In this document: positions 23,601 to 64,000 of the stretch, in pieces
Layout of the letters: each line of letters opens with the position of its first letter
Numbering within the stretch: position 1 is the first letter of the stretch
NCBI GenBank assembly: GCA_038087875.1
Contig: CM075995.1
Location: 5,086,001 to 5,150,000 of the forward strand
Source of the DNA: Malacoraja senta
Lineage: Eukaryota
Length of the DNA: 64,000 nt
Direction: 5' to 3'
The notes under the pieces: generated by a model
Databases searched by the model: none
What the model was told of the DNA's origin: nothing
The model's input: only the letters and a program-made list of their open reading frames with translations
Position numbers and translations under genes: made by a program

Positions 23601-23978
23601 AACAAGTAATGCAAGGATCAGGGATTTTATCCAGCTTGGCTGGGAAGGACGATCGATTTTGTGCTTCCTCCATAACTGGACAATGGGAATTGTTGATAAA
23701 TTATGAAAATTCGCAATTGTTATACAGGCCATGTAGACTAGAAAAAAACAAGCAATGTTCTGGGGAAGGAAACATTTAGAAGCATTGACCAGGACATAAA
23801 TAATCATTCCAGAGAGGACAGAAAGAGCAGTTAGAGAACTACATATGGCACTAACTAATCTGACGATGTTGGGGAGGTTCAATAGAGAATGTCACCTCTA
23901 TCTGTTGTGATCTTGAAATCAGTGCCTAAACATTGTGATATGCAAGTTGTTGTGTTAATGACCAACACCATTACTGTC

Positions 23979-24065
23979 TGAAGAAGGGTCTCGACCCGAA
24001 ACGCCACCTATTCCTTCTCTCCAGAGATGCTGCCTGTACCGCTGAGTTACTCCATCATTTTGTGT
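23979..24065 (+). mobile_element. Hammerhead-bearing Penelope mini-element
   Basis: 11-bp TSD with 1 mismatch (CCATTACTGTC 23968-23978 / CCATCACTGTC 24066-24076); contains CTGAAGAAGGGTCTCGACCCGAAAC. Confidence 0.75.
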
Positions 24066-28301: not shown

Positions 28302-28786
28302 TATAGATATCAGATAGATCGATTTTCCAGGCACCACAATTCTGCCGTTCATCGAGAGACTAACTGCTCAACAGCCACTTCCAGGGGAAATAGAATACAT
28401 ATGTTTGCATATTTCCCTGCCCATTACATTAATGCACCTATCTCAAACAGAAAAGTCACATGAACACATTTTGGTTTAATGTGTAACATCAATGCAGAAA
28501 ATTAATTAATTAAAATCACTCTGAAAATGTATCCAATAAACAAGAAATGTACAATATCTACAAAAATTAACTTGAGATATAGACATATATTTGGTTTCTA
28601 AAACTGAATTCTTGTTCATCTTAGCCATAAAACTGGAAGAACAAAAAAAGTAAATTCTCAAATACACAGCAATATTCTTTGTTTTTTAAATCTGCAATTC
28701 TGCTATTAAGGATAGCTGAGATGCCATGCAACCCTTCCAACACAGATTAAAAGTGCTCCTAAGATAGACACAAAAAGCAGGAGTAA

Positions 28787-29074
28787 AGGCCCTGTCCCAC
28801 TTTCCCGAGTTACTCACGAACTCTCCCGAGTTTTCCCCTTGATTCGAACTCGGAGAATTACGGTAATAGCCATTCGTAGGTACTCGGGGCTATTTTTTTT
28901 ACTCGTGGACACTTTTCAACATGTTGAAAAAACGCCCCGACTTACCTGATGCCCCGAGTTCCTATGGCTGGCATTACGAGCCACTACGAAACATCTACAG
29001 AATCCTACGCATCCTACAAGCTCGCTACAGACATTCCCCGAGTTCGAATCACTCGGGAAAGTGGGACAGGGCCT
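28787..29074. mobile_element. PIF/Harbinger-type MITE
   Basis: Perfect 24-bp TIR AGGCCCTGTCCCACTTTCCCGAGT (28787-28810 / 29051-29074) and TAA TSD (28784-28786 / 29075-29077). Splits a Penelope mini-element. Confidence 0.88.
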
Positions 29075-29389
29075 TAACTCAGTGGGTCAGGCAGCATCTC
29101 TGGAGAAGTGGAATTGGTGACATTTCGGGTCGAGACCTTTCTTCAGACTGGTATATAATAAGCCAGTCACCTAACAATATTGATGTAGTTTACAACGTAT
29201 ATCCATGACAAAATATCTCCAGCTCTTTCTGCAAGCAAATTTGATTATTACATTTCTAATGGATACTCTGGCAATTTACAGCATATGAAAATGGCTCGAA
29301 GCCAGAACCGTTGCATTTTTTAAACAGTCTGATAGCTGTGGGGGGGATGAAGCTACTCATGTCTTGTAATTGTTTACAAGAGATGTTTG

Positions 29390-29960
29390 GAAATGTCTGA
29401 ATTTTCAAGTTCCTGTACCTTCTCCCAGAGGATAGAAGGGAATGACCAGGGTGGCAGGCATCCTTGACAATACTTCCAGCCATAAGGATTGAAGGAAATA
29501 ACAAACCGGTTACTGGACTGTTTAAGAAGGAACTGCAGATGCTGGAAAAACAAAGGTTGACAAAAATGCTGGAGAAACTCAGCGGGTGAGGCAGCATCAA
29601 TGGAGCGAAGGAAATAGGCGACGTTTCGGGTCGAGACCCTTCTTCTGAACAAGGGTCTCGACCCGAAACGTCGCCTATTTCCTTCGCTCCATAGATGCTG
29701 CCTCACTCGTTACTGGACTGTGTTCACCACTCTCTGCAGAATCGGATAGTCAAGAGCAGAGCACTCATTCAGAGAGGATAGAAGTAGCAGTTAGAATATT
29801 GTCAGAATGCGTTCTATAGTATGTCTGTAAAGGTTCAAAAGAATCCTTGTGTACTTGCCATCTACAGTCAATGAATAGCATCCTGACACAGCTGTTTTTA
29901 TTGTTAAGGTGCCCTAGGGCTGAATATATTTCAAGGGAAATGGTGTTTTCCCTGGATCTA
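29390..29960 (-). mobile_element. Degenerate Rex1/Babar-like LINE fragments
   Basis: ORF 29765-29968 contains ALGHLNNKNSCVRMLFID (Rex1-type RT motif). The 3' segment resembles 43585-43990 and 63040-63300. Confidence 0.5.
29522..29708. mobile_element. Palindromic Penelope mini-element with two opposed hammerhead stem II/GAAAC motifs
   Basis: Perfect 13-bp TSD GTTACTGGACTGT (29509-29521 / 29709-29721); inverted arms centred near 29645. Confidence 0.85.
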
Positions 29961-30074: not shown

Positions 30075-31030
30075 CAAAGGACAAAGGACAATTATTTGTC
30101 ACGTACACCAATTGGTGTAGTGAAATTTGTTTTGCCATGCAGCACACAGATAAAGATAAGACACAACATTAAAGAATTTAACAATAAACATAAAAAACAT
30201 CCCCCCACAATGGTTCCCATTATGAGGGAAGGCACAGAGTCCAGTCCCCATCCCCTTGTCCACCCATAGTCGGGCCTATTGAGGCCTCCGCGGTCGCCGC
30301 TACGGGGCCTGATGTTTCAGGCCCTTCTTCGCCGGGTGATGGTGCTCCGGCGTCGGGAGAATCCTCTCAGCGGCCGCTTCCTAACTGGAGACCGCGGCTT
30401 CCGAAGCCGACAGGCCGCGCTTGATGGAGCTTCACCACTGGCGATCTCGTCGCGAGATCCCAGGCTCCCGGTGAAAAGTTCAGCGCCGCTGCCCGCAGCT
30501 GGACGCTCCACAGTCCCGCAGCTCCACGATGTTCACCTGCGGTCTCAGCATTCCGGAGCTCCAGCGCGGCAACCCGGGCAAGGCATCACCCGCTCCGCGA
30601 TAGCGCTCCAGCGCTGTGCCGCCGCCCGCAGCTGGACGCTCCACAGTACCGCAGCTCCACGATGTTCACCTGCGGTCTCAGCATTCCGGAGCTCCAGCGC
30701 GGCGACCCGGGCAAGGCATCGCCCGCTCCGCGACAGCGCTCCAGCACTGTGCCGCCGCCGAAGCCGAGGTTCTGGGCGGTCCCCGACAGGAAACGCCGCT
30801 CCAGGCCCGCTGGTAGGCCGCGAGGATGGGTCGACGGTGCAGCCCGGAGAAAAGCTGCCTCTCCGAACGGGTAGGGACCCTAGAAAACAGTTTCCCCCTT
30901 CACCCCCCCTCCCCCACATAAAAAAGGCTAGAACTCCGAAAACAAAAAAACTCAACTAACTAAAAATAAAAAAGAGAAAAAACGTACAGCTGCAGGTTGG
31001 GCAGCCATACCCATACAGGACGGCGCCCCC
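30075..31030 (-). mobile_element. GC-rich ~950-bp non-coding retroelement (family shared with 32855-33610)
   Basis: Clear homology to 32960-33300. 133-bp internal tandem duplication (30495 / 30628), (TTTGTCC)n tail at 30073-30091, 5' hairpin ATGGCTGC-N7-GCAGCTGT. Confidence 0.6.
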
Positions 31031-31746: not shown

Positions 31747-31875
31747 TGTTTAAGAAGGAACTGCAGATGCTGGAAAATCGAAGGTAGACAAAAGTGCTGG
31801 AGAAACTCAGCGGGTGCAGCAGCATCTATGGAGCAAAGGAAATAGGCAACTTTTCGGGCCGAAACCCTTCTTCAG
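31747..31875 (-). mobile_element. Hammerhead-bearing Penelope mini-element
   Basis: Perfect 9-bp TSD ACATTACTG (31738-31746 / 31876-31884); its minus-strand 5' end is at CTGAAGA. Confidence 0.82.
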
Positions 31876-32854
31876 ACATTACTGGTCGGTTATCCTTGGT
31901 TCTGAAAACTACTGCTTACCTTTTTTCCCCCCAATGAGCCAATGAAATTCACCGGTCAGCACCGGCTACAACCTACGAGAACCTTCGACCTCCTGGCAAC
32001 CCATTAGGACCTCCCGGCGACCCACCTATGGCACGAGAATTCTCTCTACTCTCCATGGCGGCTTCATTCTAGTTGCCACTAATTTTTCAACATATGGAAA
32101 AATTCACGGCGACCATAATGAGGCCGCGACCAGTTCTCAGAATGCGGGAATCCTCATGACCATGAAGGCGACTCCCTGGCATCCACCTGCGAACATGTGG
32201 CGACTGCATAGTCTCCTGCAGTCGCCTAAAAAGCCTAAGTGGAACAGGCCCATTACATGCTGCAGCCGAATAGGTCTATAAACACTGCTCAAAAGATAGC
32301 ATTTTGAACAAACAAAAAAAGTTAAACATATAACAAAACCCAATATGGTGCAAAGCAAAAGCCCTTATTTCTTAGTGCAACCGGGGGAGTGTGCAAATAT
32401 CTGGGGACATTTTAAGAAAGAATGTAAAGGCTTTTACAAAGATGAACATGAGATTTATTAAAGTTATTCCAGGAATGAGAGACTTTTAGTTTTTTGAAAC
32501 TTAGGATTGTTCTTGGAAAAGAGAAAGCTACAAGAGGATCTGACAGAAGCATTAAAAATTACTGTGGGTTCAGATAGATAATCATTTCCCTGATAACAAT
32601 CAGGAATTGTTAATTGGCAAAAGAAAAGAAAACAAATTATGCAAGAAGGTGTTGGGTATCTGAAATCAATTTCTAAAGCAAGTTGGGGCAAGATTGAACG
32701 GTAGCCGTCAACAGGTGGGTAATTTTCCCGAGGAAAGAAACCAAAAGTTCAAGGAGCAGAATTAGGTCATTCGGCCCATTCAAGTAATCCACCATTCAAT
32801 CATGGTTGATCTACCTTCCCCTCTCATCCCCATTCTCCTGCCTTCTCCCCAATT

Positions 32855-35045: not shown

Positions 35046-38000
35046 CTGCTCTCCTCTGCCCCTCCCCACCCTAGTCGCTGTACTAGTCCCACTGTCTTCC
35101 TGGTGAGTTTCATTGTTTATATAACTTGTTATCGCAGTTAACAATGGGCCGTTTCCTTTATCATCGTTATCTATTTTTGCATATCTTTCCTTCATTTGTT
35201 CTATATCTCTCGTTTCCATCTCCCCTGATTCCGTCTGAGGAAGGGTCTCGACCGTGCAAAGATTGATTTCTCTATCTTCAAGTAACCCCCCCCCCCCTTT
35301 CTGTGTCCCACCCCATGAACTGCTGTCATCATACTAGTTAGCTGAGAGGGATGAGAAATGCACGTTCTCATAAACTGACTTTGCAAAGCTTAATCGGTCC
35401 CATTGAATCTGGCTCCATTGCCACCTCTAGAAATATATTCTGACCCTGGCACCTTTCTGCAATAAGTATTTTTTTATTCCCCCTTATGCTGGGGTTCTTG
35501 GCAGCAGTGGCGCTGAACCTTCCTAAATCGGCTTGGGCACAGTGCTCTTGGATTACCGTGAATGCTGTGGTACTAGTTTGCTGGATAAAAGGGATGGGAA
35601 ATGCACAAGTTCTCACAAATCGTGTCCGTGCAAAGGTTAATCGTTCCCATTGAATCTGACTCCACCGCCGGCTCCAGAAATACATTCTGACCCCAGCAAC
35701 TTGTTACATAAAGTACTTTTTTATTTTACCTTTGCGAAGGAAATGAGGGCATGGCAGCTGGAGTAACAGCGGGCCAGGCAGCATCTTTGGAGACCAATGG
35801 ACGCATCATCTGTCCATGTTCTCCAGAAATACTGCCAACCTGCTGTGTTACTTTGTCTTTTTTTTCCTTTCTGTGGAGATTCTCGGCAGCAGTGGCGCTG
35901 AACCTTTCTAAATCGGCTGGGGCACAGGGCACTCGGATTGGCGTGAACGCTGAAGTACTAGTTGGCTGTATAAAAGGGATGGAAAATGCGCAGGTTCTCC
36001 CATATCGTGAACGAACAGGCGTGGCACGTCGCCTATCCATCTCCTCCAGCGATGCAGCCTGACACTGGATTACTCCGGTACTTTGGTTCTCCCCCCCCCC
36101 CCCCCCCATGAGCTAACAGCCCTGTCATGCAGGACAAATGTCAAGTATTAGGGTCCTTTAGTCATGCAGAATGAGGCACCCCGGCTACAACAATTCAATC
36201 CCTTTAATCCAACTTAATTAGCCCTGGTCCTCGTTTTAGTAATAATTTTACTAAATAACATCCCATCCATCATATCCCATTCTTCATTTAAAATAATCGG
36301 GGAATAGATTCCCCTAACATCGCATAATGAAGTCCCTCGCCTAAATTCGGGGGTAAGATTCCATTATTTCTACATTCAGAACAGGGATCAAATGAGCATA
36401 ATAAGGCGATTATTGGACAGACTTTGAGATCACTTGCTGTTAATGCAGTGGTCTTCAGGGTCAATGATATTTTATCTAGTGCGGGATATATTGTTCAATA
36501 GAATTTAATTCTGTGGATGCCAAAGTGATGGTAAGCACAGTTGTCGCAGGTGTCTATGATGGTCTACCAAACCGGCAGGACATCTTCACGTGGGAATGTA
36601 GCATTGCTTCAGGTTGTGGAGAGATTTGTCCAGTTTCTGTAAATTGAAATGACAGTTAAGTAGTTTTGGGTTTGTACCCAGAGGTAGATGTCATTTGTTT
36701 ACTGTCTTTATTGATGGTGACAGACATGACAGTTTCTAGCACTTTCTGCACTCCATTCGGATTTTTAACATTTATTTTTGTGTCTCTTATATAAACTGCT
36801 AAATCTTTTTATTGAACAAGTTGGATGTGCCATGAATACAATGGAGAAACGAGGAACTGCATTTACTGCTTTATAAAAAAGATAGTGCTGCAGTAATAGT
36901 GGGTCAGGCAGCATCTCTGGAGACCAATGGATAAGTGTAAGAAGAAGGAACTGCAGATGCTAGTTTAAACCGAAGATAGACATAAAAAGCTGGAGTAGCT
37001 CAGCTGCACAGGCAGCAGCTCTGGCGAGCAGGAATGGGTGACATTTCGGGTCTAGAAGAAGTGTCTTAACCCGAAAAGTCACCCGTTCCTTCTCTCCAGA
37101 GATGTTGCCTGTCCTGTGTTACTCGAGCTCTTTGTGTCTTTCTTCGGATAAAATCTATCCATGTTTTCCAGAGAAAAATACATTGTTTTCTTTGGCTGCG
37201 CTGGTCATAGAGATCATTTGATTTTAGCCCCCCCAGTCTCATTTTATGACACAGTAGGAGGCTTTTGGGTCCATGCTGCCCCCCAGGGGAGCAATCCAAT
37301 TAGTTCTTCCCTGTACCCTACAATTTATCCTCGCACATGCGCAGCAACTCCCCTTATTTTTGTCATTAAACTACAGAAAATTTACAGTAACCAATTAACT
37401 TGCTGACACCTCTTTGTGATGTGGCAATAAACCCATGTGTCACAGAGAGAAGGTGCAAAGTGCAAGACAGCACCCAGAGTCAGGATGAAAACTGGAGTAT
37501 GAGGCAGCAGCATTGCGTCGCCTCTATCTAGTACTTCATTAGGGAATAAATGGTCAGTGTTATTTTTCAATTGGAATTAATTGAATTTAGTAATTAAGAA
37601 GTGTTGGAGCGCATTTTTAATTTAATATTGTTATTATTATATTATATTATATTATATTCTTAATAGAGAATATGTACTTGGAAAGGAGGGGAGTTGGTGG
37701 TGATGCACATTTTTACTGAGTTCAGGAACATCTGGCAATATAATGACTCAGCAGTCAAAATGAAATTGAGTCATGTTTCATTACATGGAGAGAAGCACAA
37801 TTGGTTGGGTTTAATTTGAAATTTCAGTTATGTCTAGTGTCTGTTTTAAGATTAGTCCATAAGGTGTACCAGGGGAAGGAGGTGGGATGAGGGAATGCTT
37901 TCGAAGTATAATTGCATACACTATCTAACTGGCAAACTTACTGATGTACTCGTATTGTAGACATAGTCGCTTATTAGTTTGGTTGTCATGTCGGCGATAT

Positions 38001-41000
38001 CACAAAGTTAGGGTTGGGAGTATGATATCCATAACAATTAAAAATAACACACAATCTCCATGTAGGTTTGGAAAAGATACTAGTAATTTTCAGATTTGAG
38101 ATTCTGACCAGTGTTATTGCACAAATGATATGAAAAACGTATACCAAGTCTTTTGTTGCTTTAAATTAGAAGGTTACATTTATATTTAGTGTGTGTGGTT
38201 AACTTTTGTGCAATAGTATTTGCATTTATGATGATGCTTACAAAAAAATTAAATTTTGGTTTCCCTCCAGTTGCTATCATTATCTACTGTTGTTAGGCTA
38301 TAGTTCAGTAAAGTGTATGGCTGCGGTTTAACAGTAAGGAAGGAACCAAAGTCAGATTGTCATCTTGGATAATGCAAACTTCAAAGTCATTGTTAGGGAA
38401 ACTATAAGGTCCATAACTGGAGAATGGAATTGCCACAGATGGGTCAAGTCTGTTAAATTATCGTCTATTAAAATAGCTGCTTTTCTTCAAATCTGTAAAG
38501 TTTGCATAAATGACTCCAGATGCTAACCATCTTCACAATAATGGTTGACTGTGAAGCATAATAGATCGTCTGATCAAATTGAAATATTGCAAGGTGACAT
38601 CGACAATTTTCTGATTTTTAGGAAATAGACTGTGACCTGCACCCACTGTCTTTAGAGAGGATGAATGATAGCATAGTGTCTTTAAAATGTTTTAATTTTA
38701 ACTTAATAAATTTGTTTTATTACTGATTTAAGACAATTCCAAATTTTCCATCTTGAGGCATTTTTACTATTCTTGTATCATGTGTAGAATAAAGGGAAAC
38801 ACAATCAACGGTTAATATTAAAATTGAGGAAGCTTAGTGTGAGTTACACATGATTGTTGTAATAAAATGAACTGCAGATACTAGTATATACCAAATATAG
38901 ACACAAAATGCTGGAGTAACTCGGGTAGCGTTTCTGGAGAAAATGGATAGGTGACATTTCTGTAGGGATGTTTGAAGAAGAGACCCAACCTGATTTGTCA
39001 CCTATCCATTTTCTCCAGAGATGCTGCCTGATCTGCTGAGTTACTCCAGCATTTTCTGATTATTGATTTTGCTGTCACTTTCTACATGTATTTGTCAGTA
39101 CCATTGCTGTCAGGAAATTTATTATTGTATTAACATTTTTAACCTGTTAATTTTTCACCCCAGAATAAATAAAGTGCCTCTGTACCATAGCTAGAGATGC
39201 TGTCGACATACATAAACTAATCTAGAAAAGAAATCTTTCAAATATTGTATATACTGTACTAACTTTCCACCATCAAAATCCTCAAAATATGAATTGCATG
39301 CAAGCAAATAATATACTAAAATACAGATTCTAACAATGACATTTGGGCAAAATTGTATCTTGCTTGATACTTTTTGTTCAGATTGAGACCTGACTCTGAA
39401 GACAATGGAGTTTGAAAGGTGACAGTGTCCCCCCCCCCCCCCCCCCCACCTCTCTCCGATTCTGTTCCGCCCTCTGATATTTCAAACTTTTGACTGCAAA
39501 AGTCTATCAATCAAAATGATTGTTGGTACTTCACAGAAAATGAGCATTTGGTATGTGATAAAGTTATAGAAAACGATATTTCTTAAAGATACTAATCTAT
39601 CATTCATCCTCTCTAAAGATAGTGTTAACAAGTGCATGCAGGTCACAGTCCAAAAAATCAGAAAACTAGATGCTGGAAATTGCAATAGAAACAGAAAATT
39701 CTGGAAACGCTGAGCCTGTCAAGCAGCATTTCTGGAAAGAGAAACCAATAACATTCGTGAGTTCAGTGCACTTCATTGGAACTAGGAAAGAGAAAAAAAC
39801 TCATTTAAGGTTGCAGAGAAGGTGTGGGAGGGTTAAATAGAACAAAGGGAATATCTCAGATAGGATGAGGCCACATCCATGGTTACATCCATCCTGGTCA
39901 TTATTAATTAGTTTTGTTTGCTCAGAACTCAGTAACATTTAAAACTGAGTAATACTGTTTTCAAAGTACACTTCACTGAGTGGTACAATTCTGCAGGGTA
40001 TATTTCCTCTTTCCTTTTTGTGTTCCAACTTTTGATTTGAAGAGTAAGTAATATATAATTTGATTCAAGGCGTTTTCCATTTCATGACGGTGCTTTGAAT
40101 GAAATGATTGTGAATGATCACTGTGTAGTTTGGGTCTTTGAGGGAATGGAAAATGCTGCTGTAGCCAAAAAGATTTAAATTTTGTGCACCACCCAATGTC
40201 TTTGAAATTGTGAATCATGTTGTTTGCTCCAATAGAATTTGAATTTTTAGTCACATGCAGAACTGGACATTCTTGAATGAGATCCAGCTGTTTCAACAAA
40301 ATATATTCTGGTGTAGTGCATGCTAACAGACCAGGTATGTGTTTCGACAAAGTGAAATGCTGTGAATGTAACTGATTATGAGCAATCCATTGGAAAATTG
40401 CATTTGCCAAATTATAACAATATTAAGTGCTTGAAATTGAAAAAAATTTAGGTCTCAGATTAGGTTTTATATGGATATACTCATGTCTATTTGGGGTACT
40501 TCAAAATCCGTCATAAACATTTTATTTATTAATAGCCGTCCTTAAAAGAATTTGTGAAACTTCTTTACATGGAGAGTGATTGTGAACAGAGGCACTAGAT
40601 AAATACAAATATGGCACAATGGTAGATTGACGCAGTTGAGCCTAAATACTGATATATAGTTCTAAATGCCACAGAGCCATTTACCACAGAAAAAGGTCAT
40701 TCAGTCCAAAATATTTGTGCTGAACAATACCTGGCTTTCCTGATCCCATTTCCCAGCACTGCCCAGAGCTTTCCATGCTTAAGTATTGACAAGTGCTCAT
40801 CCAAATGTTACTTAACTTGCCTGCTCAACTCACAAGCAGTGAGTGCCAGCTTTTGACCACCCTCCAACTGAATTTTCTTTCCTGAAATCCCTTCCAAAAC
40901 TCAAATGCTTATTGTAAAACGTAGCCCTCTAGTCACATGTGTATTTCATCAGCCATAGGGATTTATTCACCCCTAAATCAACTAATATACTTGAATCTCC

Positions 41001-41149: not shown

Positions 41150-41830
41150 TCACTAATATGCCCTGTTCTTTGAGCCTGAAGATGAGGCTTTCCACTCCTG
41201 GACATCCGAGATGTCCTCTTTCAGTAAACATGGCTCCCCACCTGCTGTTCTGTATGGATCAGTCGTCCATGTCTCCTCTGTGTCTTGCGTGTGTTCTTGC
41301 TCCTCTTTGCCCACCCCCACCCACGTCGTTCTCCAACATTTTCGTGACCTTCAATATGATCTCGCCGCATCCCATCTTCCCATCCCAAGCTCTTTCAGCT
41401 TTCCGGAGAGACCACTCTCTCCACTACTCCTTTGTTCACTCATCCCTTTCCACCCAAACTTCCCTAACCTCAGGTACTTTCCTCTTCAACTGCAGAAGGT
41501 TTAACACCTGTCCCTACACCTACTCCCTCACCTACATCTAGGGACAGCAGCAGCCCTTCCAGGTGAGACAGGTTCACATGCAACTCCTCAAAACTTTGTC
41601 TATGCATTCGTTCTCACAATGTGGCTCCTCTACTATTGGTGCTACTAAGTGTAGACTAGGCAAAAACTGTTTTGCCAAACAGTTGCTCACCAAGACCAAC
41701 TGGATCTCCTTTTCCCATTCCAATACAGTCCTTTCTGTCCTGGTCCTCTTCCATTGCCAGAGTGAGAATACACTCAATTGGAGGAACAGCACCTCCCATT
41801 CCACATTGCTGGCTTGCATAACCATGAAAG
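41150..41830 (+). mobile_element. Old Penelope-like fragment (thumb to GIY-YIG)
   Basis: LSAFRRDHSL...GTFLFNCRRFNTCPY aligns by eye with 50150-50870. Confidence 0.65.
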
Positions 41831-42124
41831 AAGTGGGAATGACCAGATGCAAAGAGTCTAGCTATTATGCTGGCTGCTTTCCCATGGTAGCATGAGGAGT
41901 TGATGGAGGGGAGAATCTGGTCTGTGTGATGGACAGGGCTGCATCCACAACACTGCAATTTCATGCAATCTTGACCAGAGCTGTTCCCAAACTGAGCTGT
42001 GATGCCATCCGATACTGAGACAAATAAGCAAGAATGTTTGATTATCTATATGGTCATTCTATTACATTATCTTCCTTTTCTTCGCTTCCTCTTCCCTCCT
42101 AGGGGAGAACTAAGTTTTGTAGAT

Positions 42125-42152
42125 CTGATGAAGGGTCTCGACCCGAAACGTC
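42125..42152 (+). ncRNA. Minimal hammerhead core in ANLN intron 1 (sense strand)
   Basis: CUGAUGA-A-GGGUC-UC-GACCC-GAAA-CGUC. Helix I pairing is poor in this copy. Confidence 0.45.
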
Positions 42153-42720
42153 ACGGAGTTACTCTAGCTTTTTGTGTATCTTTTGTAGATTATTGGATGT
42201 GTTTTCAACTAAGATGCTATTCATGATTTTCATTGACACTGCTTTTTGTTAGATCACAAGTTTAAAGTATGGTCCTATAGTTTTCTTGCCTTTCCCTAGA
42301 AAGCTATTAATCTAGTGAGAGCCTACTCTGCAATATTAATTGAGATATTGGAAGCCTTTATGCTGATAAAAAACTACTGTGGGAACACATTTGTTTAAAC
42401 CTTAGATTATGCACTTTGCACTATGTAATGTTAGTATAACAGTGAACTTGCAAAATGTACCAATTCTAGTCAAGCTAAGAGGAATTATGGCCTGATTCCT
42501 CATAGTAGTTCTATATGTGATTCCTGATGTGCGAGGACTATTTCTGTGATCTGCTTGTCTGTTTAAAACAAAATAAAAGCTTATTGTTTCAATTGAATGA
42601 AGTAATGTGATTTGCTTATTGTTTTATTTGGATGAAGTAATGCAATTTGTTTAATGATAGTATAATGTAATCTGATTTTATGAGGCTGTGGACAATACAC
42701 TGAATTGTTACCTATTCTAG

Positions 42721-46698: not shown

Positions 46699-47583
46699 GT
46701 ATTGTGTAATTGTGTTGGAATGTGATGATCAATTTCATTGTTTTACATTTCTTGCTTTCATTTTTTTAAATAATGCTTTATTCAAATATTTAACATGATA
46801 ACACTGGAATTAATTATCCTTTCCCATCTTAATGTCACGATAATTACTTGTATTTGTTTAACACCTTTGGTAAGGTAAATCATCTCAAAAGGCCTCGCTG
46901 GGGCATTAAAAAAATGAGGGCAAGGGCTAGGGATAAAAGAACTGACAAAACTAAGACAAAGTGTTGGGTTTTAAGGAGTGCCTTAAATGAGGATAAACAG
47001 GTGGAAATATTTAAGGATGCACTTCAGAACTTGGGTCTTGAAGATATCGTTGCCCATCATGGAGGAAAGAAAGTCTAGGAAAGAACTGCAGATGCTGGTT
47101 TAAATCTGAAGGTAGACACAAAGTGCTGGAGTAACTCAGCGGGACAGGCAGCATCTCTGGAGAGAAGGAATGGGTAACGTTTGTGCAGAATGGAGGAAAG
47201 AGACCTTGAGTTGGGCAATAGTCATGTATTTAAGGTTCAGGGTGGCCAACAGCTGAATATAAGAGCTGAACCCTCTTTAGTCAGAGGGTGGTGAAACTCT
47301 GGAATTATTTGCCATAGAAGGCTATAGAGGCAAAATCAGTGGATATTTTTAAAGAAGAGATAGATTTTTGATTAGTACATGTGTCAGAGGTTATGGGGAG
47401 AAGGCAGGAGAATAAGGTTAGGAGGGAGAGATAGATCAGCCATATTTGAATGTGTATGAAAGAACGGCAGATGCTGGTTTAAATTGAAGGTAGACACAAT
47501 GCTGGAGTAACTCAGCAGGACAGGCAGCATCTTGGGAGTGAAGGAATTGGTTGACTTTCGGGTCGAGATCCTTTTTCTCTCCA

Positions 47584-47708
47584 CTTCTTGCGTATGGCGT
47601 GCACAGCCTAAAGTTGTAGGACAACTTGTTCTATTTGATTGTGCACGCCGGGTTGATTGCATTCGTCGAAACAGGGCGGACCATGTGAAGGTTGCAATCT
47701 TCCACCCC
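47584..47708 (-). mobile_element. Short SINE-like element headed by an HDV-like ribozyme (copy 2)
   Basis: TSD TTCTCTCCA (47575-47583 / 47710-47718; 10 bp with one mismatch if 47574/47709 are included). Same sequence as 1082-1216 apart from a 10-bp internal duplication there. Confidence 0.85.
47655..47708 (-). ncRNA. HDV/CPEB3-like self-cleaving ribozyme with minimal P4 (copy 2)
   Basis: GGGGUGG AA GAUUGCA ACC UUCACAU GGU CCGCCCU G U-UUCG-A C GAA UGCAAUC; putative catalytic C at 47665. Confidence 0.8.
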
Positions 47709-48769
47709 CTTCTCTCCAGTGATGTTGCCTGTCCTGCTGTTACTCCAGCATTTTGTGTCTAGCCATGATTGAATGGTGGAGTAGACTTGATGGGCCAAAT
47801 GGCCCAATTCTACTCCTATCACTTATGACTGTATAAATCTAAAAAAATTGTAATTCCTTTGAAATTTTATCTTATTTCTTTAAAACATTCTTATTCAAAG
47901 TTAGTGACCTAACATTGGAACGGAACAAGAATCACCAAATTTTCTCGTGATCATATTTCTAGGAAAGAACATGCTGTTATTGATTTGTCCAGGTCATGTG
48001 TTAATGGAATCAAGAGCATGCATTCTTTAAGTAGCCTTGACATACATGAATGGCCCAATGAGCTTTTCGTGCAAATGCTGAACTTCTGAAGTAGAACAGA
48101 AACATGCGCTTCAGGCCACCCTGTCCATTACGACCAAGTTGGTATTCTGAGCTTGTCTCATTTACCTGCACCCAGCCCCCAGCCAATCCAACCCCTCCCC
48201 ACAATCCAAGCCCAGACAAAATAGTGGCAAATTGCTTCTGCAATTTCCAATCCAATGGTCTCCTCGTGGCTGGGTAATCAGAATTATACACGCACTCCAA
48301 GGGTCGTTGTTGCGTTTTTTTAAATATGGGCAGTTTGTATACAACCAGAATTAATAAAAATTAAAGCTTTTTATTGCATGTTAGGTGAGAGATGGAGTAA
48401 ACATCTCATGATAATATATTTTAGAATTAATGGTTTTGTAGTCACCAGGACACTAACAAAATGGAGGCTTGCTACTTTGAAAATTTGTAAATGAATCTGA
48501 TGCAATCTCACAATTTAATCAAGAATGTGAGGTGGAATTTAAAAAAAAATAAAGAATAGTTACTGAAGCCCCCAACACTGGAAATATCTCAACATGTGCT
48601 TTGACATGCAATTTCATGACTTTTACACTCAATAAAATTGCGACTCGTTCTTCTAAACTCCAACGAATTAGGTCTAACTTATTTTTAGCCATCCATGTCA
48701 GGACAATCCTGTCTTCCCAGGAATTAATCTCTTGGTTGTTTCCAATGCCAGTATATCTTAAATGTGTGA

Positions 48770-51700
48770 TGCTATTGTGGGATATGACCAGTTGGGGGAG
48801 AGCAGTCGTGGTCTGGAACGCGGTGTCTGGCCTGTCTTTGGGGCACAGTGCGGAAGGGAAAAGTCAGAGCCATAGTGATGGGAGACTCGTTAGAGGGACA
48901 GACGAGGAGATTCTGTGGCAGCGAATGAGACTGCAGGATGTGTTGCCGCCCAGGGTCCAGGATATCTCGGAGCAGCTGCAGAACATTGAGGGAGGGCGAG
49001 TAACTGGAATTTGCTCTTTGGCACAAGTGACATGGGTAGGAATAGGGATATGGTCCTGCAGAGTCCATATAGGGAGTTAGGCAGAAGAATATAAAGAACC
49101 CCGAGGGTAGTAATCTCTTGTTTTCTCCCAGTGACACGTACTTGTGAGGTTAGGAACAGAAAGATGGGGCAGGGGGACGAGTAGCTCAGGAGTTGGTGCA
49201 AGCGATGGGGATTTTGATTTTTTTTTAACCTTTGGGATCTCTTCTGTGCAGACGTGTTCTGTACAAGAGGGATGGGTTGCACCTGAACTGCCGCCCCACC
49301 GGACATCGCCTCTACCTCAGTCCTTCCTCCGGACCCAACCCCCATCCTTGCCATGTGTTCACCATCCCCCCTGACCTCCCCCTCTCTGATACCGAATGGT
49401 CTGTCCTCAGCAGAGGCCTCAGCTTTGTTCCCCTCCATCCCCACCTCAATGAGTTCCGGCCCGCCACGATGTGGAGCTCTTCTTCCGTCGCCTCCGCCTC
49501 AAAGTGTTCTTCCATGGGAAGGAGTCCTCGCCCCCCAGTGAGATGACCCCCTTCTCCCATCTCCAACGGACCCCCTCCTCTTGGACTCCCCCACATGGCC
49601 ATCTACCGGCTTTAGACCTTTTTATTTTAATCTACCAGCGGGACATCAATCGCCTCAACTTCTGCACTCCCCTGTCTCACTCTAACCTCTTCCCCACCCC
49701 CCCCCCCCCCCCGAACGTACAGCCCTCCACTCACTCTGCAACAACCCAGATTGGGTGATCAAACCTGCCGACAAGGGAGGTGCCGTGGTAGTCTGGCGCG
49801 TTGATCTCTGTAAGGCTGAGGCCACGCGCCAACTCTCAGAAACCTACTTATCCTTGTTCCATGACCCCACAGACGAGCACCAGGCCACTATCTCTACACC
49901 ATCACTGACCTCATCAACTCCGGCACCCTGCCCTCCCATGCCTCCAACCTCATCGTTCCCCAGCCCCGCATGGCCCGATTTTACCTTCTCCCCAAAATCC
50001 ACGAACCTGACTGTCCTGGCAGACCCATTGTTTCTGCATGTTCGTGTCCATCCAAACTTATTTCCACATATTTCGACTCCATCCTATCTCCCTCCCCCCC
50101 CCCCCCCCCCCCACATCTCCCAATTCCTCTGTCTACGCCGCATCTGCACAGGTTGAGGTGTTCCACACCAGGGCATCGGAGATGTCCTCATTCTTCAGGG
50201 AACGGGGGTTCCCCTCTTCTACTATAGATGAGGCTCTCACCAGGGTCTCTTCTATACCCCGTGACTCTGATCTCACTCCCCATCCCCCCCACTCTCAACA
50301 AGGGCTGACTCCCCCTTGTCCTCACCTTCCACCCTACCAGCCGTTACATACAACAAATAATCCTCCGACATTTTCGCCACCTCTAACGTGATCCCACCAC
50401 TTGCCATATCTTCCCATCTCCTCCTCTGTCTGCTTTCCACAGAGACCGCTCCCTCCGGAACTCTGTGGTCAATTCGTCCCTTCCCACCCGAACAACCCCC
50501 TCTCCGGGCACTTTCCCTTGCAACTGCAAGAAATGCTACACTTGTCGCTTTACCTCCACCCTTGACTCCATTCAAGGACCCAAGCAGTCTTTCCAGGTGC
50601 TGCAGAGGTTCACCTGCACCTCCTCCAACCTCATCAATTGCATCCGCTGCTCTCGATGTCAGCTGCTCTACCTCGGTGAGACCAACACCGAACACCTCCG
50701 CTCGGTTCGCAATAACCAACCTGATCTCCCGGTGGCTCAGCACTTCAACTCCCCCTCCCATTCCGAATCCAATCTTTCTGTCCTGGGCCTCCTCCATGGT
50801 CAGAGTGAGGACCACCGTAAATTGGAGGAGCAGCACCTCATATTTCACTTGGGCAGTTTGCACCCCATCGGTATGAACATTGACCTCTAATTTCAGGTAG
50901 TCCCTACTTTCTCCTCCCCCTCTCAGCTCTCCCTCAGCCCACTGGCTCCACCTCTTCCTTTCTTCTTGTCACCACCCCACCCTCACATCAGTCTGAAGAA
51001 GGGATTCGACCCGAAACGTTGCCCATTTCCTTCGCTCCATAGATGATGACTCACCCGCTGAGTTTCTCCAGCATTTTTGTCTACCTTCAATTTTCCAGCA
51101 TATGCATTCCTTTTTAAACACTCAATATCCTTACAAGGAGGTTTGCAACTGCTACTTGGGTGGGCTTAAACTTAGAGGTGCAGGAGGGTGGGAACCAGAG
51201 TAGTAGATCAGAAGATGGAAGGAGTGATGGGAAGGCCGAGATTGGGATCAGTAAAGGCAGGGAGAGGTGAAGGTATATGGTTAAGCTGATGGGTTGAAGT
51301 GTGTTTATTTCAATGCAAGGAATTTTGTGGAGAAAGCAGATGAACTGGATCGGTGCTTGGCATTATGAAGTTGTGGCCATTTGCGGAACTAATTACAAGA
51401 GGAACATGACCGGGGTCTCAATGTTTCAGATGTGATCGAGGAGAAGGCAAAAGAGGTAGAGGAGTTGTGCTACTAATCAGGGAGGCTGGCACCGGCACTC
51501 TGAGAGAACACTCTGTGGGTGGAACTTAAAAATAAGAAAGGTGCAAGCACTCTAATGGAATTGTACAATAGGCTTTACAATGGCAAGTGGGAGATAGAGG
51601 GACAGATATGTATTATTAATTGGAACATGCTCAGTGCCAAAGGCTTAGACAGGCAGAATTTGTTAGGTGTATTCAAGAATTTTCTGAAACAGTATGTGGG

Positions 51701-51970: not shown

Positions 51971-54002
51971 TCAATTTGTTAGTAGAACCAGGAAAATGAT
52001 TACCTTACGATACAATAGAACTTTATTTATCCCAGGCTTTGTGCACATTAAGCTAGAAACCGTGCCCCAGTGAATTGCAGAATTGAGTTTGTTGACAGCG
52101 CTTGAAACTAATTGGATGGGGTGGGTGGTTGAGCAGGATTCAGGTGACGGGAAGCTTAATAAATGAAAGAAACAAGAAATCAGTGGCACAGGCATGTGAA
52201 GGAGTGATTGAAAATCAAATGTGACAGAGGTGATAGAACATATAAACAAAAGTGAGCGGCAGAAATTGAAACCAGAAATAGAAATTATAAAATGCCCAAG
52301 CATAAAGCATGCAGGATTTGTAACAAATAGTGATAGATGAGTTTGATTTAATAGGTATTCCATAATTGTTGGGGGATTAAGATTGATGAATCATTATTCC
52401 AGATTATTCAATGTTCCAAAAGAGCAGATAAAGAGGGAAAGGAAATGGGATAGCATTGTTAAATCAAGGAAGATAGCGCAGAAGTGACTGGTAATATACA
52501 TGTGTAGGAAGGAACTGCAGATGCTGGTATAAACAGAAGATAGACACAAAAAGCTGGAGTAACTCAGCGGGTCAGGCTGCATCTGGAGAAAAGGAATAAG
52601 TGACATTTCTGTTCTCGACCTGAAATGTCACCTATTCCTTTTCTCCAGAGATGCTGCCTGACCCGTCGAGTTACTCCAGCTTTCTGTGTCTATCTTCGGT
52701 GATATAGCATAGGTGGTGATTTGTGATGTGGAATTAGTTGGGATGGAAATAAGGAACATCAGGAGGTAAAGGCATGGGTGGTAAGCTCCCAAAGCATTGT
52801 CTTGTATTTGGAACAGAAGTGGTGGAGACGAAGTAATTGAGAGTGAGTGTGTGGCATCTTTGCAAGAATGAAGCAGGATCTTGGAGCAGGTGTTGTCCAG
52901 AGTCAATAGGTTTATAGCTGGTGTTGGTTGGAAGTCTGTCCCTGGTTGTTTCCTGTTTATGAAATTTCAATGTAACTATTCCTTCAGCTTAGTGGCATCA
53001 CTGGTGAATGCCAGAGATCCTTGAGCTTTTGCTAAAATGGAAGTAACACTGGGGAATGGACAAAGAAGTAGATATAGATTAGTATTACAAAGATGAGTAT
53101 TAGTATTACAAAGGCGTTTCCTTAACAAATTGTAACAGACCATATTGGCCACTTGGTGGCTCTGTAACCTGATACCATTTCTATCATCGATCATAATTTC
53201 TCTCATCATTCTCCAGTGGGAGAATTGATTTAAATCTTTACAGAGACCAAATTCGGGCAGCTCCTCTTTGAAGGTGCAAAAAAAAAACTTGCATAGTAAA
53301 ACGGAGACTTGGCAAGGACACTTTAAGGGATAATTCTAAAGGACACAGCATGATAATAAAAGGAACAATAATTGCTTGGGTGGGGAGTAAAGCAAAGGCA
53401 TGCAGTGATAACAGTGAGGATTTTCCCATGATCTGCATGTGTCTGATTGAACTTCTGGCTATCTAATTAAAATATCCCATAGAGCTATTGGTTACAAAAT
53501 TACAGATTTTAGTTATCTTAAACGTGTAGGGACGAAGTGTTTCTAAAATAGAATAGGGTGTGGTTGAAGAGAACGTGCAGGCCGTGGTGTGGCCCTGCAC
53601 CTGCTGTCATTCGTGGTAATAGAGATGAGTTTAGGAAGCTTTTGATCATTATAACTAAGAGCCAACTGCAGTAAACCTGTCTAACCCTGTGGACGTCCTC
53701 TTTGCTTCATGTCAAATTATGCGGTGGATGCAATGAATTGACTTTATTTGTGTTATTCTAGTCAATGCCATTTGAAGAAGGTTTTGTTTTCATTTAAATA
53801 ACGAATGGTTATTTGGAAAGTGGTTGCAGCAAACCAATCTAGGGAGTGCTCCAATGGTTCTAATTTGCAGAATTCAAATTCGGAGTGAGATTTGTATGGA
53901 GAGCAAAAAGGACAAATCCATAGGCAAATGTAAAATGTGAGCTTCTATAATCCCGGTTGGTTTATCATTAATGTGATAATGTAGATTGGTATACGTGATA
54001 TA

Positions 54003-59779: not shown

Positions 59780-60266
59780 GTGTGTATGTGGCACTTCTCT
59801 TAGAACCTGAACAGTAATGAGGGATGCTATTAATGCTTGACTGTGCCAGGAAATAAATATTAATTGTATAGCCCCCAATTTTAATTTGAACGAGGCACGA
59901 ATTTGAATTCCTCATATTGAACGGGATTAAATCTTAATTGATTATTTACAGATACTGGTTTATACGAAAGATAAACACAACATTCTGAAGTAAGTCAGTG
60001 GGTCAGGCAGCATCTCTGGAGAAAATGGATAGATGATATTTCAAGTTGGAAATGTTCTTCAGCCTGATTGTAGTGGGGGGGGACGGGACTCGAAGCGAAA
60101 ACAAAGGACAAATCGGGGCTGGCCTTGCAAGGAGGTTCCCTGCGAGTCTGGTTTTTGGACAGAGGCGGGTGTGAGCCATGGTTGCTAACTGTGGAACGGA
60201 TTAATGGACTTGGTGGAGGGGGGGGTATTTGTAGAAGTTACCAAAAATTTAAGATTTCGATATTTA

Positions 60267-62155
60267 TAGAAACATAGAAAATAGGTGCAGGAGTAGGCCA
60301 TTCGGCCCTTCGAGCCTGCACCGCCATTCAATATGATCATGGCTGATCATCCAACTCAGTATCCTGTACCTGCCTTCTCTCCATACCCCCTGATCCCTTT
60401 AGCCACAAGGGCCACATCTAACTCCCTCTTAAATATAGCCAATGAACTGGCCTCAACTACATTCTGTGGCAGAGAATTCCACAGATTCACCACTCTCTGT
60501 GTAAAAAATGTTTTTCTCATCTCAGTCCTAAAAGATTTCCCCTTTATCCTTAAACTGTGACCCCTTGTTCTGGACTTCCGCAACATCGGGAACAATCTTC
60601 CTGCATCTAGCCTGTCCAACCCCTTAAGAATTTTGTAAGTTTCTATAAGATCCCCCCTCAATCTTCTAAATTCTAGCGAGTACAAGCCGAGTCTATCCAG
60701 TCTTTCTTCATATGAAAGTCCTGACATCCCAGGAATCAGTCTGGTGAACCTTCTCTGTACTCCCTCTATGGCAAGAATGTCCTTCCTCAGATTAGGAGAC
60801 CAAAACTGTATGCAATACTCCAGGTGTGGTCTCACCAAGACCCTGTACAACTGCAGTAGAACTTCCCTGCTCCTATACTCAAATCCTTTTGCTATGAATG
60901 CTAACATACCATTCGCTTTCCTCACTGCCTGCTGCACCTGCATGCCTACTTTCAATGACTGGTGTACCATGACACCCAGGTCTCGTTGCATCTCCCCTTT
61001 TCCTAATCGGCCACCATTCAGGTAATAGTCTACTTTCCTGTTTTTGCCACCAAAGTGGATAACCTCACATTTATCCACATTATACTGCATCTGCCATGCA
61101 TTTGCCCACTCACCCACCCTATCCAAGTCATCTTGCAGCCTCCTAGCACCCTCCTCACAGCTGATACTGCCCTCCAGCTTCGTGTCATCCGCAAACTTGG
61201 AGATGTTGCATTCAATTCCCTCGTCCAAATCATTGATGTATATTGTAAATAGCTGGGGTCCCAGCACTGGGCCTTGCGGTACTTCACTAGTCACTGCCTG
61301 CCATTCTGAAAAGGACCCGTTTACTCCTACTCTTTGCTTCCTGTCTGCCAGCCAGTTCTCTATCCTCATCAATACTGAACCTCCAATACCGTGTGCTTTA
61401 AGTTTGTATATTAATCTCTTATGTGGGACCTTGTCGAAAGCCTTCTGAAAGTCCAGATATAACACATCCATTGGTTCTCCCTTATCCACTCTACTAGTTA
61501 CATCCTCGAAAAATTCTATAAGATTCGTCAGACATGATTTACCTTTCATAAATCCATGCTGACTTTGTCCAATGATTTCACCATTTTCCAAATGTGCTGC
61601 TATCCCATCTTTAATAACTGACTAGCAGTTTCCCCACTACCGATGTTAGACTAACTGGTCTGTAATTCCCCGTTTTCTCTCACCCTCCCTTTTTAAAAAG
61701 TAGGGTTACATTAGCTACCCTCCAATCCTCAGGAACTACTCCAGAATCTAAAGAGTTTTGAAAAATTATCACTAATGCATCCACTATTTCTGGGGCTACT
61801 TCCTTAAGTACTCTGGGATGGAGCCTACCTGGCCCTGGGGATTTATCGGCCTTTAGTCCATTCAATTTACCTAACACCACTTCCTGGCTAACCTGGATTT
61901 CACTCAGTTCCTCCATCTCATTTGACCCCCGGTCCCCTGCTATTTCTGGCAGATTAATTAAGTCTTCCTTAGTGAAGACAGAACCAAAGTAGTTATTCAA
62001 TTGATCTGCCATGTCCTTGTTCCCCATGATCAATTCACCTGTTTCTGACTGCAAGGGACCTACATTTGTTTTAACTAATCTTTTTCTCTTCACATATCTA
62101 TAAAAACTTTTGCAGTCAGATTTTATGTTCCCTGCCAGTTTTCTTTCATAATCTA
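60267..62155 (-). mobile_element. CR1 LINE, 5'-truncated (RT domain)
   Basis: ORFs 61680-62093 and 60356-61591 (KSPGPG..HPRVLKE, LDFQKAFDKVPH, FADD) separated by a frameshift; (TTTCTATG) tail. Confidence 0.95.
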
Positions 62156-63333
62156 TTTTGTGTTGGTTGTAAAGGTACTAAGCAAAATATGAGGTGCTGT
62201 TCCTCCAGTTTCCGTGCCGCCTCGCTTCCAGTGTCTTCCCCCCCCACCTCCACCAAAGTCACCCTACTGCAATCATTCTGAAGCAAGGGTCCTAACCCAA
62301 AGCGTTGCTTATCCGTTTTCTCTAGAGATTCTGTCTGACCCGGTGACTTACTCCAGCATTTTGTGTCTATCTTTGATCAGATATGGCTTAGGATGTCCAG
62401 TGCCACCTCAATTGTAATAGTGTCCTCAAGACATCTCCAATTATTGTCCCAAGTATCATATCTTTGTGGTAATAACAGGAGAGAGATTCATTGAGGGCCT
62501 TGCCCATATCATTCAACTCCCAATGTAGATGATCACTTTGGTGTCTGAGGGGCTCCATTCCCTCTCTAGTTGCCCACTTTCCCTAAACATACTTAAAATC
62601 TCTTTCCATTCTCATTAATCTTATCTGCTAGAGCTTTTTCGCCCTTCTGATTTCCTCCTTAAGCAAGCTCCTCCAGGGATGCAGTTGTTCCGATCTGCCT
62701 ATACCTGACCAATGTCTCATTTTTCCTGGTGAGAGCCTCAATTTCCCTCAACATCTAGGATTCCTTAAACCCACCGACATTTCCTTTCACTCTAATAGGA
62801 ACATTGCATCAATTCCACTCACCCGAAAATCCTTGGCACTGTGGCAGTCTCATGCAATCAAATCAAACACAAGTACAATAGATAGAGCAAACTGGAAGAG
62901 AGCAGCACAAAGCAATTTGATGATATTGTGTTTGATATACCTGATCTGTTTGGATAACATGCAAAACCCATCTTATCACTGCACCTCAATTCATGTGAAA
63001 ATAATAAACCTAAATCTAAACTGGGACTGCCGTAGAGCAGAATATAGTTCCATAGACAAAGTCCAATGTTCACAATGGGGTAGGAGTGAATCCTACCCGG
63101 GAGGGCCGTTCAAATGCCTGATAACAGAGGGGAAGAAGCTGTTCCAGAGACTGGTGGTGCATGCTATCAACCTGCGGTGTGGGAGCAGGGAATGAAGGAA
63201 TGACCAGGATGGAGCAAGTCTTTGATTATATCGGCTGCTTTTCTGAGGCAGCGTGAGGTGTTGATGGAGTCAATGGGGTCTAGCCTCTGATGGACTGGTT
63301 GTTACAAAACTAAACTGTAATGCAACCCAATAG

Positions 63334-63545
63334 GTAGACACAAAATGCTGGAGTAACTCAGCTGGTGAGGCAGCATCTCTGGAGAGCAGGAATGGGTGAC
63401 GTTTCGGATCGAGACCCTTCTTCAGATTGGGTCTCGACCCGAAACGTCGCCCATTCCTTCTCTCCATAGATGCTGCCTCACCCGCTGAGTTACTCCAGCC
63501 TTTGTGTCTACCTTCGATTTAAACCAGCATCTGCATTTCTTTCTT
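63334..63545. mobile_element. Palindromic Penelope mini-element with hammerhead motifs
   Basis: Perfect 14-bp TSD ATGCAACCCAATAG (63320-63333 / 63546-63559); ~85-bp inverted arms around 63420-63430. Confidence 0.88.
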
Positions 63546-64000
63546 ATGCAACCCAATAGTATGCTTTCTATGGTGCATTGCATGGTGCACTATTGGGAAA
63601 GTTAAAATCCCCCACTATGAGAACCCTATAAGTCTTGTGGCTGCCTGCAATCTCCTGTCATATTAGTTCTTCTAATTCCTGTTGCCTATTTGGGGGCCTA
63701 TATATATACATATATATATACATATACAAGGTGATCTTACTCTTTGTATTTCTCAGCTCTACTCCCTTCAGTAATGTCATCTCGGACTACTGCCCTGATA
63801 TTCTCCTTAACCTGATATTCTCCTCATCAAATACTAGTGCCACCTGCAATATTGTGATTATGATGCACATGTTATATTGCAATCGTGTGGGACATTGTAA
63901 TTTTTTACAGTATTGATCATGGTTGTGAGAAATTGTGTATATGTCAGTTGATGTAAAATTATAATTGGTGTTTCTCATGTTCCATTTGTAAATGAGAATG

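Follow-up and report, generated by a model that had tools for sequence, protein, structure and literature searches.

The window analysed here, a stretch of 64,000 nucleotides from the skate Malacoraja senta, contains at 50991-51120 (plus strand) what is, judged by its sequence, the 3' pseudo-LTR (pLTR) of a dead Neptune-type Penelope-like element (PLE) of a batoid fish. Upstream of it lies a decayed PLE open reading frame in two parts: i) 49337-50092 (+), read in several frames, covers the N-terminal part up to the start of the reverse transcriptase (RT); and ii) 50158-50900 (+), carrying frameshifts and stops, covers the RT thumb, a Cys linker and the GIY-YIG endonuclease. The parts were located by tblastn and with a profile of 78 full-length homologues; positions 166-418 and 651-899 of its 902 map, in several frames, to 49337-50887. 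This 49337-51120 element lacks its 5' pLTR and about 165 aa at the start of the frame, and the RT core (profile about 419-650) is deleted. The best protein matches are PLE proteins of skates, rays and sharks, with 60-71% identity. Pfam gave no match for the window's PLE fragment alone; the RT and GIY-YIG assignments come via the homologues, which carry an RT followed by a C-terminal GIY-YIG. The linker between RT and endonuclease reads C-x4-C-x2-C, within the CX2-5CxxC form, which places the element in the Neptune/Nematis group as defined in PMC8557442; Neptune rather than Nematis is assumed from its occurrence in vertebrates.

Public contigs show a 2-nt gap at 50884; with this taken into account, the endonuclease frame closes with a stop codon at 50898-50900. 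A pyrimidine-rich 95-nt spacer (50897-50991, +) starts with GT, ends with CAG just 5' of the hammerhead core described below, and is a candidate intron. The sequence TCAGTCT at 50988-50994 (+) is initiator-like in that it fits the initiator consensus, YYANWYY, and its A at 50990 is a candidate start of a short template RNA. The pLTR itself, as delimited by a hidden Markov model (HMM) and by public contigs, ends in a tail of ~30 nt (about 51090-51120). A candidate ATG lies in the pLTR about 22 nt 3' of the cleavage site; the short frame that it opens runs through the tail in the minus-strand copies at 31825 and 29597, and was set aside after comparison with the N-termini of the 78 homologues proved not significant (best E 0.07).

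The hammerhead core

The initial annotation placed a minimal hammerhead core at a Penelope 3' end, downstream of a GIY-YIG frame, and this is what is found: the core occupies 50991-51022 (+), with C3 at 50993 as claimed, 93 nt 3' of the stop codon of the decayed GIY-YIG frame. It consists of a 2-bp helix I, CUGAAGA (50993-50999), an extra A (51000), stem II (51001-51012), GAAA (51013-51016), and a loop-less CG helix III leading into a GUU triplet (51017-51020), with the scissile bond 3' of 51020. Stem II had been drawn with 5 bp and a 2-nt loop, which needs correction, as the family form has 4 bp and a CUCG or UUCG loop; in the 50993 copy an A.A mismatch at the fourth pair leaves 3 bp. Other subfamilies have GUC as the triplet. 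The consensus features CUGANGA, the extra nucleotide, a helix II opened by G10.1-C11.1, GAAA, a palindromic 15.2-16.2 without loop III and an NUH triplet are present, and this match to the published consensus supports the assignment of 50991-51022 as a PLE-type minimal type I hammerhead within a pLTR.

A loose core pattern matched the window 16 times, against 5.6 +/- 2.0 in shuffles, and a strict descriptor without loop III matched 4 times, against a mean of 0.04 (maximum 2) in 200 shuffles. The intact minimal-hammerhead descriptor occurs in only four arms: 4216+, 42125+, 50993+ and 63425-. A covariance-model search, which had been proposed as a check, gave no Rfam hammerhead match at E<=10 in either the window or 50950-51130; this is expected for a motif without a helix III loop. 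The Rfam microRNA matches were rejected, being merely the palindromes described below and all under their gathering scores.

Short copies and their insertion junctions

An HMM built from 11 arms matched the window 33 times at E<=0.5, with 30 of these matches at E<=0.01, whereas a reversed-window control gave no match. The 17 positions at which the segment had been said to recur were all recovered, the weakest being 35235 (21 nt, E=0.2), but many of these copies are without part or all of the core. Further copies were found near 2231, 23402, 35756, 36026 and 39667. The copies span about 2.9 kb, or 4.6% of the window, and form 24 units, including 9 head-to-head palindromes; no tandem array of the pLTR unit occurs in the window. 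Several subfamilies are distinguished among the arms by 15 diagnostic columns out of 59, and 33 pLTR arms stand against 3-4 endonuclease remnants. The 50991-51120 copy cannot be the source of the mini-elements, as had been thought, because it is truncated and has lost its RT core, and because the arms belong to several subfamilies.

Solo pLTRs with target-site duplications lie at 4215-4304 (+; no tail, 9-bp duplication, intact core), 23977-24065 (+; no tail, 11-bp duplication with 1 mismatch, U16.1 mutated), 31747-31876 (-; tail, 9-bp duplication), 42124-42180 (+; internal deletion, 10-bp duplication, intact core) and 47073-47189 (-; tail, stem II deleted, 14-bp duplication with 1 mismatch). 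A short solo at 22963-23018 (+) begins at the core and has no convincing duplication, and another at 28756-29148 (-) is interrupted by a 286-bp inverted-repeat element. Head-to-head palindromes with a tail on the right arm only are found at 1296-1491 (14-bp duplication, 1 mismatch) and 63332-63546 (14-16-bp duplication, intact core on the minus arm). Those with a tail on the left arm only are found at 29519-29710 (13-15-bp duplication), 38866-39059, 47452-47768 (split by an unrelated repeat with an HDV-like ribozyme), 52502-52700 (joined within stem II) and 36940-37149, the last lying in the apex of an older core-less palindrome at 36852-37176. This outer element has a junction in common with a second older core-less palindrome at 35756-35852. 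Sequence from upstream of the core is retained at 59948-60085 (-), where a pLTR of another subfamily keeps the pyrimidine-rich upstream stretch as a 5'-truncated 3' end; at 62170-62377, where an inverted endonuclease-end fragment (minus) is followed by the upstream stretch and pLTR (plus, 62277-62377); and at 35180-35254 (+), where the pyrimidine-rich stretch is followed by the first 21 nt of the core.

Target-site duplications scored >=9 in 8 of 24 units, compared with 5 of 552 mismatched junction pairs, and were weak or absent in the other 16. Since the mini-elements have their own duplications of variable length, they are independent insertions that moved in trans. Five of the eight strongly duplicated units are solos; in all five the duplication directly abuts TCTG, the 5' edge of the core, and none starts at the cleavage site, so that the template was probably uncleaved RNA, as far as five solos with secure ends can tell. 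The 3' ends form two classes, one near HMM columns 92-103 and the other, some 30 nt further on, near columns 125-131, as expected from internal starts of reverse transcription. The units do not have the fixed termini and duplications of constant length that mark MITEs: their duplications are of 9-16 bp, their arm ends unequal and their junctions different.

The tail is present on exactly one arm in each of the seven younger palindromes, which are joined at or just after the core and have seven different junctions. Four palindrome junctions, read by eye, fit microhomologies of 2-5 nt that the self-complementary stem II shares with the bases at the element's start. The closest relative within the window was the partner arm for 8 of 14 arms and another arm for the other 6. 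The older palindromes at 35756 and 36852 (outer) are alike over 71 bp at 83% across their common junction and have unrelated flanks, which indicates that at least one palindromic master spread as a unit; their apex is near helix III and the cleavage site. The proposal of a very high-copy non-autonomous family thus holds with regard to abundance and to movement in trans with individual duplications, but not as one family with one master, since the younger palindromes have as many junctions as members and only the two older ones share one.

The repeat that splits the 47452-47768 palindrome, which is short and unrelated to the pLTR, begins with a minimal HDV-like ribozyme, a 54-nt motif found at 1163-1216 and 47655-47708 (minus). 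In contrast to the pLTR solos, both copies of this repeat begin within one base of G1 of the fold, where the HDV-like class cuts. The HDV-like repeat may deserve more attention.

Contigs from 4 of 23 listed public runs were aligned to 49200-51300 at 80% likeness. In run X1 the summed depth, which is not a copy number, was 3,000-54,000 across the 5' part of the element and 0.49-0.89 million across the endonuclease. It was 0.16 million in the bin immediately upstream of the pLTR and 1.7-2.0 million in the pLTR itself. The profile had a like shape in the other three runs, with the pLTR above every other bin; the step upstream of 50975 is partly inflated because the upstream sequence diverges between subfamilies. 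Among the matches listed, loose ends fall at 50989-50990 (38 in X15, 7 and 9 in X18) and joints return to 50990 in X1 and X4. A few direct-tandem joints occur, and one X1 joint, 51080 to 51021, resumes at the first base past the cleavage site. This joint, together with the apex of the older palindromes near the cleavage site, suggests that cleaved RNA may sometimes serve as template. If the window is typical, its 24 units in 64 kb would correspond to several hundred thousand units per gigabase.

Ribozyme activity and known relatives

The description of the copies as hammerhead-bearing is mostly nominal. Because the solos begin at U2.1 or G2.2, their helix I has at most 2 bp; it has 2 bp and then an A.C mismatch in the full copy, 2 bp and then mismatches in 4215, and 0-2 bp in others. 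Of the 11 copies examined, 10 have either a broken core or a stem II whose predicted pairing probability is below 0.1, owing to predicted pairing of the core purine run with a downstream pyrimidine run. A core-open fold with stem II is predicted at 4.6-6.3 kcal/mol above the minimum at >=60 nt, and at 0.5-5.0 kcal/mol above it at 36 nt; the double hammerhead was not the minimum-energy dimer in either of the two sequences folded. An active hammerhead fold needs A14 and U17 unpaired, but in the GUU variant these two bases would pair with each other as part of the 6-nt palindrome. With four intact arms, a 2-bp helix I and a competing hairpin predicted to be 5-6 kcal/mol more stable, most copies are probably inactive. 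Published minimal hammerheads (min-HHRs) did not cleave as monomers and cleaved weakly as dimers (PMC4209133), and the hammerhead of an anole PLE is reported to require protein (PMC11167929).

Conservation and covariation were examined on the window copies, and there provide a weak test because such copies decay neutrally after insertion. Mismatches fill 11 of 158 core cells and 100 of 830 flank cells (p=0.07); the non-diagnostic flank, however, with 36 of 617, is as low as the core. Diagnostic columns number 0 of 10 in the core, compared with 15 of 59 (p=0.10). Covariation did not rise above shuffles (54 of 500). One-sided swaps keep their pairs, U2.1 being paired with A or G (5 each) and stem II pair 4 being U-A in 11 copies and U.G in 2.

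By its core, its helix III, its triplet and its position in the pLTR, the skate element belongs to the min-HHR class of metazoan PLE pLTRs described in PMC4209133. The two have in common: i) a CUGANGAH core with an extra nucleotide separating position 9 from 10.1 and with a G10.1-C11.1 pair; ii) a loop-less palindromic CG helix III, a GUC or GUU triplet and a position in the pLTR after GIY-YIG; and iii) many solo motifs and opposite-strand pairs. That paper reports such motifs for the Xena, Poseidon and Neptune elements of fishes, but its Table S1 and Fig. S3 include no chondrichthyan. The skate stem II is short (4 bp, tetraloop), and the 2-bp helix I (U-A or U.G, then G-C) is at the low end of the published set, in which helix I has 2 bp in D. 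virilis, Culex and Oikopleura and mostly 3-6 bp.

The order of RT, Cys-rich linker and C-terminal GIY-YIG, the solo and inverted pLTRs, the junction palindromes, the 30-40-nt tail at one end and the variable duplications are all as described for Neptune/Nematis PLEs (PMC8557442; PMC3846280). The skate differs in that pLTR-only insertions far outnumber the endonuclease remnants; moreover, rotifer solos are described there as often without duplications, whereas many skate copies have them. With the anole (Anolis) Poseidon element PAc the skate copies have in common two 3' end classes that define the tail and a motif unlikely to fold unaided, and PAc inserts without hammerhead cleavage (PMC11167929), as the skate copies probably did. 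PAc belongs to a different clade, however, and its frame is reported to begin at stem II, not, as with the skate candidate ATG, past the cleavage site.

A search of openly accessible papers found none on PLE mini-elements of skates or sharks and none on twin priming in PLEs; repeat databases such as Repbase or Dfam may already list the family. Searches with DNA patterns in viral contigs and prokaryote genomes, and by BLAST against plasmids and phages, gave no match, and protein scans of viral contigs gave no relative. Five matches from a metagenome scan were discarded as chance matches in bacterial genes, without further similarity.

Origin of the mini-elements

The interpretation that we favor, with a probability of roughly 0.7, is that 50991-51120 is the 3' pLTR of a dead Neptune-type PLE, its first 32 nt being an ordinary minimal hammerhead, and that PLE protein acting in trans made the mini-elements as insertions of the pLTR alone. 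The PLE protein would bind the pLTR RNA and nick the target. Reverse transcription would start within the RNA at one of two sites, by analogy with the anole PLE in vitro, and run for about 100 or 130 nt until it reached the RNA 5' end at about the initiator-like A50990. A solo would come from a single cDNA. A head-to-head palindrome would arise either from a pair of cDNAs, primed on the two opposite strands at a staggered cut, or from the fold-back of one cDNA, joined via the 2-5-nt microhomologies between the element's first bases and stem II. Microhomology of 1-3 nt with the target would account for starts at G or T. Only intact masters would probably have a functional ribozyme, working as a dimer or assisted by protein, while most of the scattered copies would be inert, and a minority of older palindromes would have spread as units from a non-autonomous master. 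An RNA start at 50990 is what we infer from the DNA ends; a 3' splice site at these bases is plausible as well.

Much of this scheme has precedent in other PLEs. For PAc, the tail is reported to be delimited by two internal start sites of reverse transcription. Cutting and extension are described for both strands of the target, mutants of the hammerhead remain able to insert, and RNA reads with an end at the cleavage site were not seen (PMC11167929). Inverted pLTRs in head-to-head arrangement are on record, as are palindromic junctions, solo copies and tails on one side (PMC3846280; PMC8557442). The anole mechanism is borrowed from a different clade, Poseidon, and is applied to the skate as an analogy.

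A bolder extension, rather unlikely as it stands, is that the batoid pLTR hammerhead has become mainly a template-handling signal and no longer chiefly a cutting device. An initiator directly before the core would leave the RNA no usable helix I, and a dimeric PLE protein would hold two pLTR RNAs head-to-head, paired by their palindromic helix III and by stem II. Priming on both strands of one staggered cut, with copying toward each other, would then place the ribozyme core at the apex and the two RT start sites at the ends. If this were true, several hundred copies per megabase would constitute a very large fossil record of PLE priming.

Palindromes and solos could also arise by self-priming on an antisense template, as in the Arkhipova model, an earlier proposal made for PLE palindromes of the head-to-head kind (PMC3846280). 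On this reading, a 3' splice site would lie at the CAG that precedes the core, and the 5' ends would not mark a transcription start. A comparable intron in D. virilis ends at the 5' end of helix I (PMC4209133; PMC2377424). The skate spacer, GT...AG and pyrimidine-rich, ends 1 nt before U2.1, and the 40 nt upstream of the core are 73-83% pyrimidine in all four copies that have upstream sequence. Its donor is weak, however: the splice donor consensus has G at +5, and the spacer has none there. No solo carries an upstream exon, the duplication abutting TCTG in each of the five, and no exact spliced joint is seen among the matches listed for the public contigs. An X15 joint, 50888 to 50987, was considered as a spliced form and rejected, as it mismatches the GT/AG pair and occurs in one contig only. 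Internal initiation in vitro, moreover, took place on a sense template (PMC11167929), and we regard the antisense route as improbable.

A self-propagating, ribozyme-dependent family would resemble the animal non-LTR retrozymes, which are likewise non-autonomous, pLTR-derived and equipped with type I hammerheads (bioRxiv 10.64898/2026.07.22.740005); its dimers would cleave themselves, circularise and re-insert. Such pLTR-derived retrozymes are reported there for one chondrichthyan genome, and the skate core fits the published consensus, its one-sided subfamily swaps preserve pairing, its core is free of diagnostic columns, and the direct-tandem joints of the public contigs include the one to 51021. 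Retrozymes, however, are arranged head-to-tail in tandem, and two or more of the hammerheads in such an array are complete, whereas the window has solos and head-to-head pairs; with no tandem array present, what is seen in this window is not a non-LTR retrozyme. The start of all five solos 5' of the cleavage site, the 2-bp helix I, the predicted preference for the competing hairpin and the lack of covariation above shuffles also speak against this origin, as does the cleavage of only 1 of 9 Xenopus dimers tested in the same preprint, and we consider it quite improbable.

It is very unlikely that the copies are LINE-like 5'-truncated 3' ends or recombination leftovers, with the clustering at the core an alignment artefact: PLEs are strongly 5'-truncated (PMC8557442) and upstream sequence, which varies from subfamily to subfamily, is retained in four copies, but the duplicated target abuts the first bases of the core in all five solos, leaving no room for unaligned upstream sequence, and five random truncations would not all have stopped within 2 nt of each other.

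Earlier publications already describe hammerheads in the PLE pLTRs of fishes, as well as solo copies, palindromes of the head-to-head kind and tails on one side. The useful detail from the skate is where its solos begin, namely at the core's 5' edge rather than at the cleavage site. With long hairpins this dense, host transcripts could also give rise to double-stranded RNA. The value of the locus is as a data set, with 24 units in 64 kb and many readable junctions; with copies this dense and junctions this readable, the skate genome would permit a direct count of cleaved versus uncleaved templates, and would allow the RNA start and the origin of the palindromes and the tail to be addressed.

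Coding remnants and tandem repeats

Four LINE-type reverse transcriptase (RT) frames lie on the reverse strand (3275-4105, 5297-8566, 18341-20698 and 60356-61621), one of which is a stop-free frame of 1089 aa with a zf-RVT domain. Decayed remnants of the endonuclease region of Penelope-like elements (PLEs) are found at 41331-41804 on the forward strand, and at 2739-2912 and 62170-62235 on the reverse. A G-rich tandem array consists of ~95 copies of a 16-bp unit (26229-27774). Two unrelated 133-bp dimers lie at 11840-12110 and 30485-30759.

Insertions into, and candidate signals within, the pLTR

The solo pseudo-LTR (pLTR) at 28756-29148 is interrupted by a 286-bp element (28790-29075), presumably a Harbinger-like MITE, with terminal inverted repeats of ~24 bp and a 3-bp, TAA-type duplication; it is present in one copy only in the window. 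At 36852-37176, the apex of an older pLTR palindrome, a head-to-head pair, hosts an inserted younger one, and this position suggests that pLTR units prefer their own sequence as target.

An ATG lies ~22 nt 3' of the predicted hammerhead cleavage site (31825 and 29597, reverse strand; 51043, forward strand). In one pLTR subfamily it opens a frame of ~26 codons across the 3' tail; the other subfamilies preserve its length, although in several of them a TAA interrupts the frame. This ATG may be a PLE ORF start; the short frame gave no significant match to the N-termini of homologues. An 8-nt block 3' of the hammerhead core could pair with either of two CCAGC motifs, ~27-31 nt apart (51042-51105, forward strand, and equivalent arms), and each of the two 3' end classes lies 10-25 nt downstream of one motif. 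Such pairing is a candidate signal for the two RT start sites.

A repeat headed by an HDV-like fold

Two copies of a 125-135-bp repeat, 87% identical to each other, occur in the window on the reverse strand (1082-1216 and 47584-47708), each flanked by a 9-10 bp target-site duplication. The repeat starts with a predicted 54-nt minimal HDV-like ribozyme fold: P1 of 7 bp with G.U as first pair, P2 of 7 bp, P3 of 3 bp, a 7-nt L3, a nearly absent P4, and a J4/2 with C. A 10-bp hairpin and then an AAG-repeat end follow. Both copies have their 5' end no more than one base from G1, the expected cut site. A descriptor scan of the window matched these two copies only; in Rfam, two HDV-like families matched at 16 and 14 bits, both below threshold. 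The repeat looks like a SINE-like element headed by an HDV-like ribozyme, and a literature search found no account of such an element. Its interest may exceed that of the hammerhead-bearing pLTR mini-elements.
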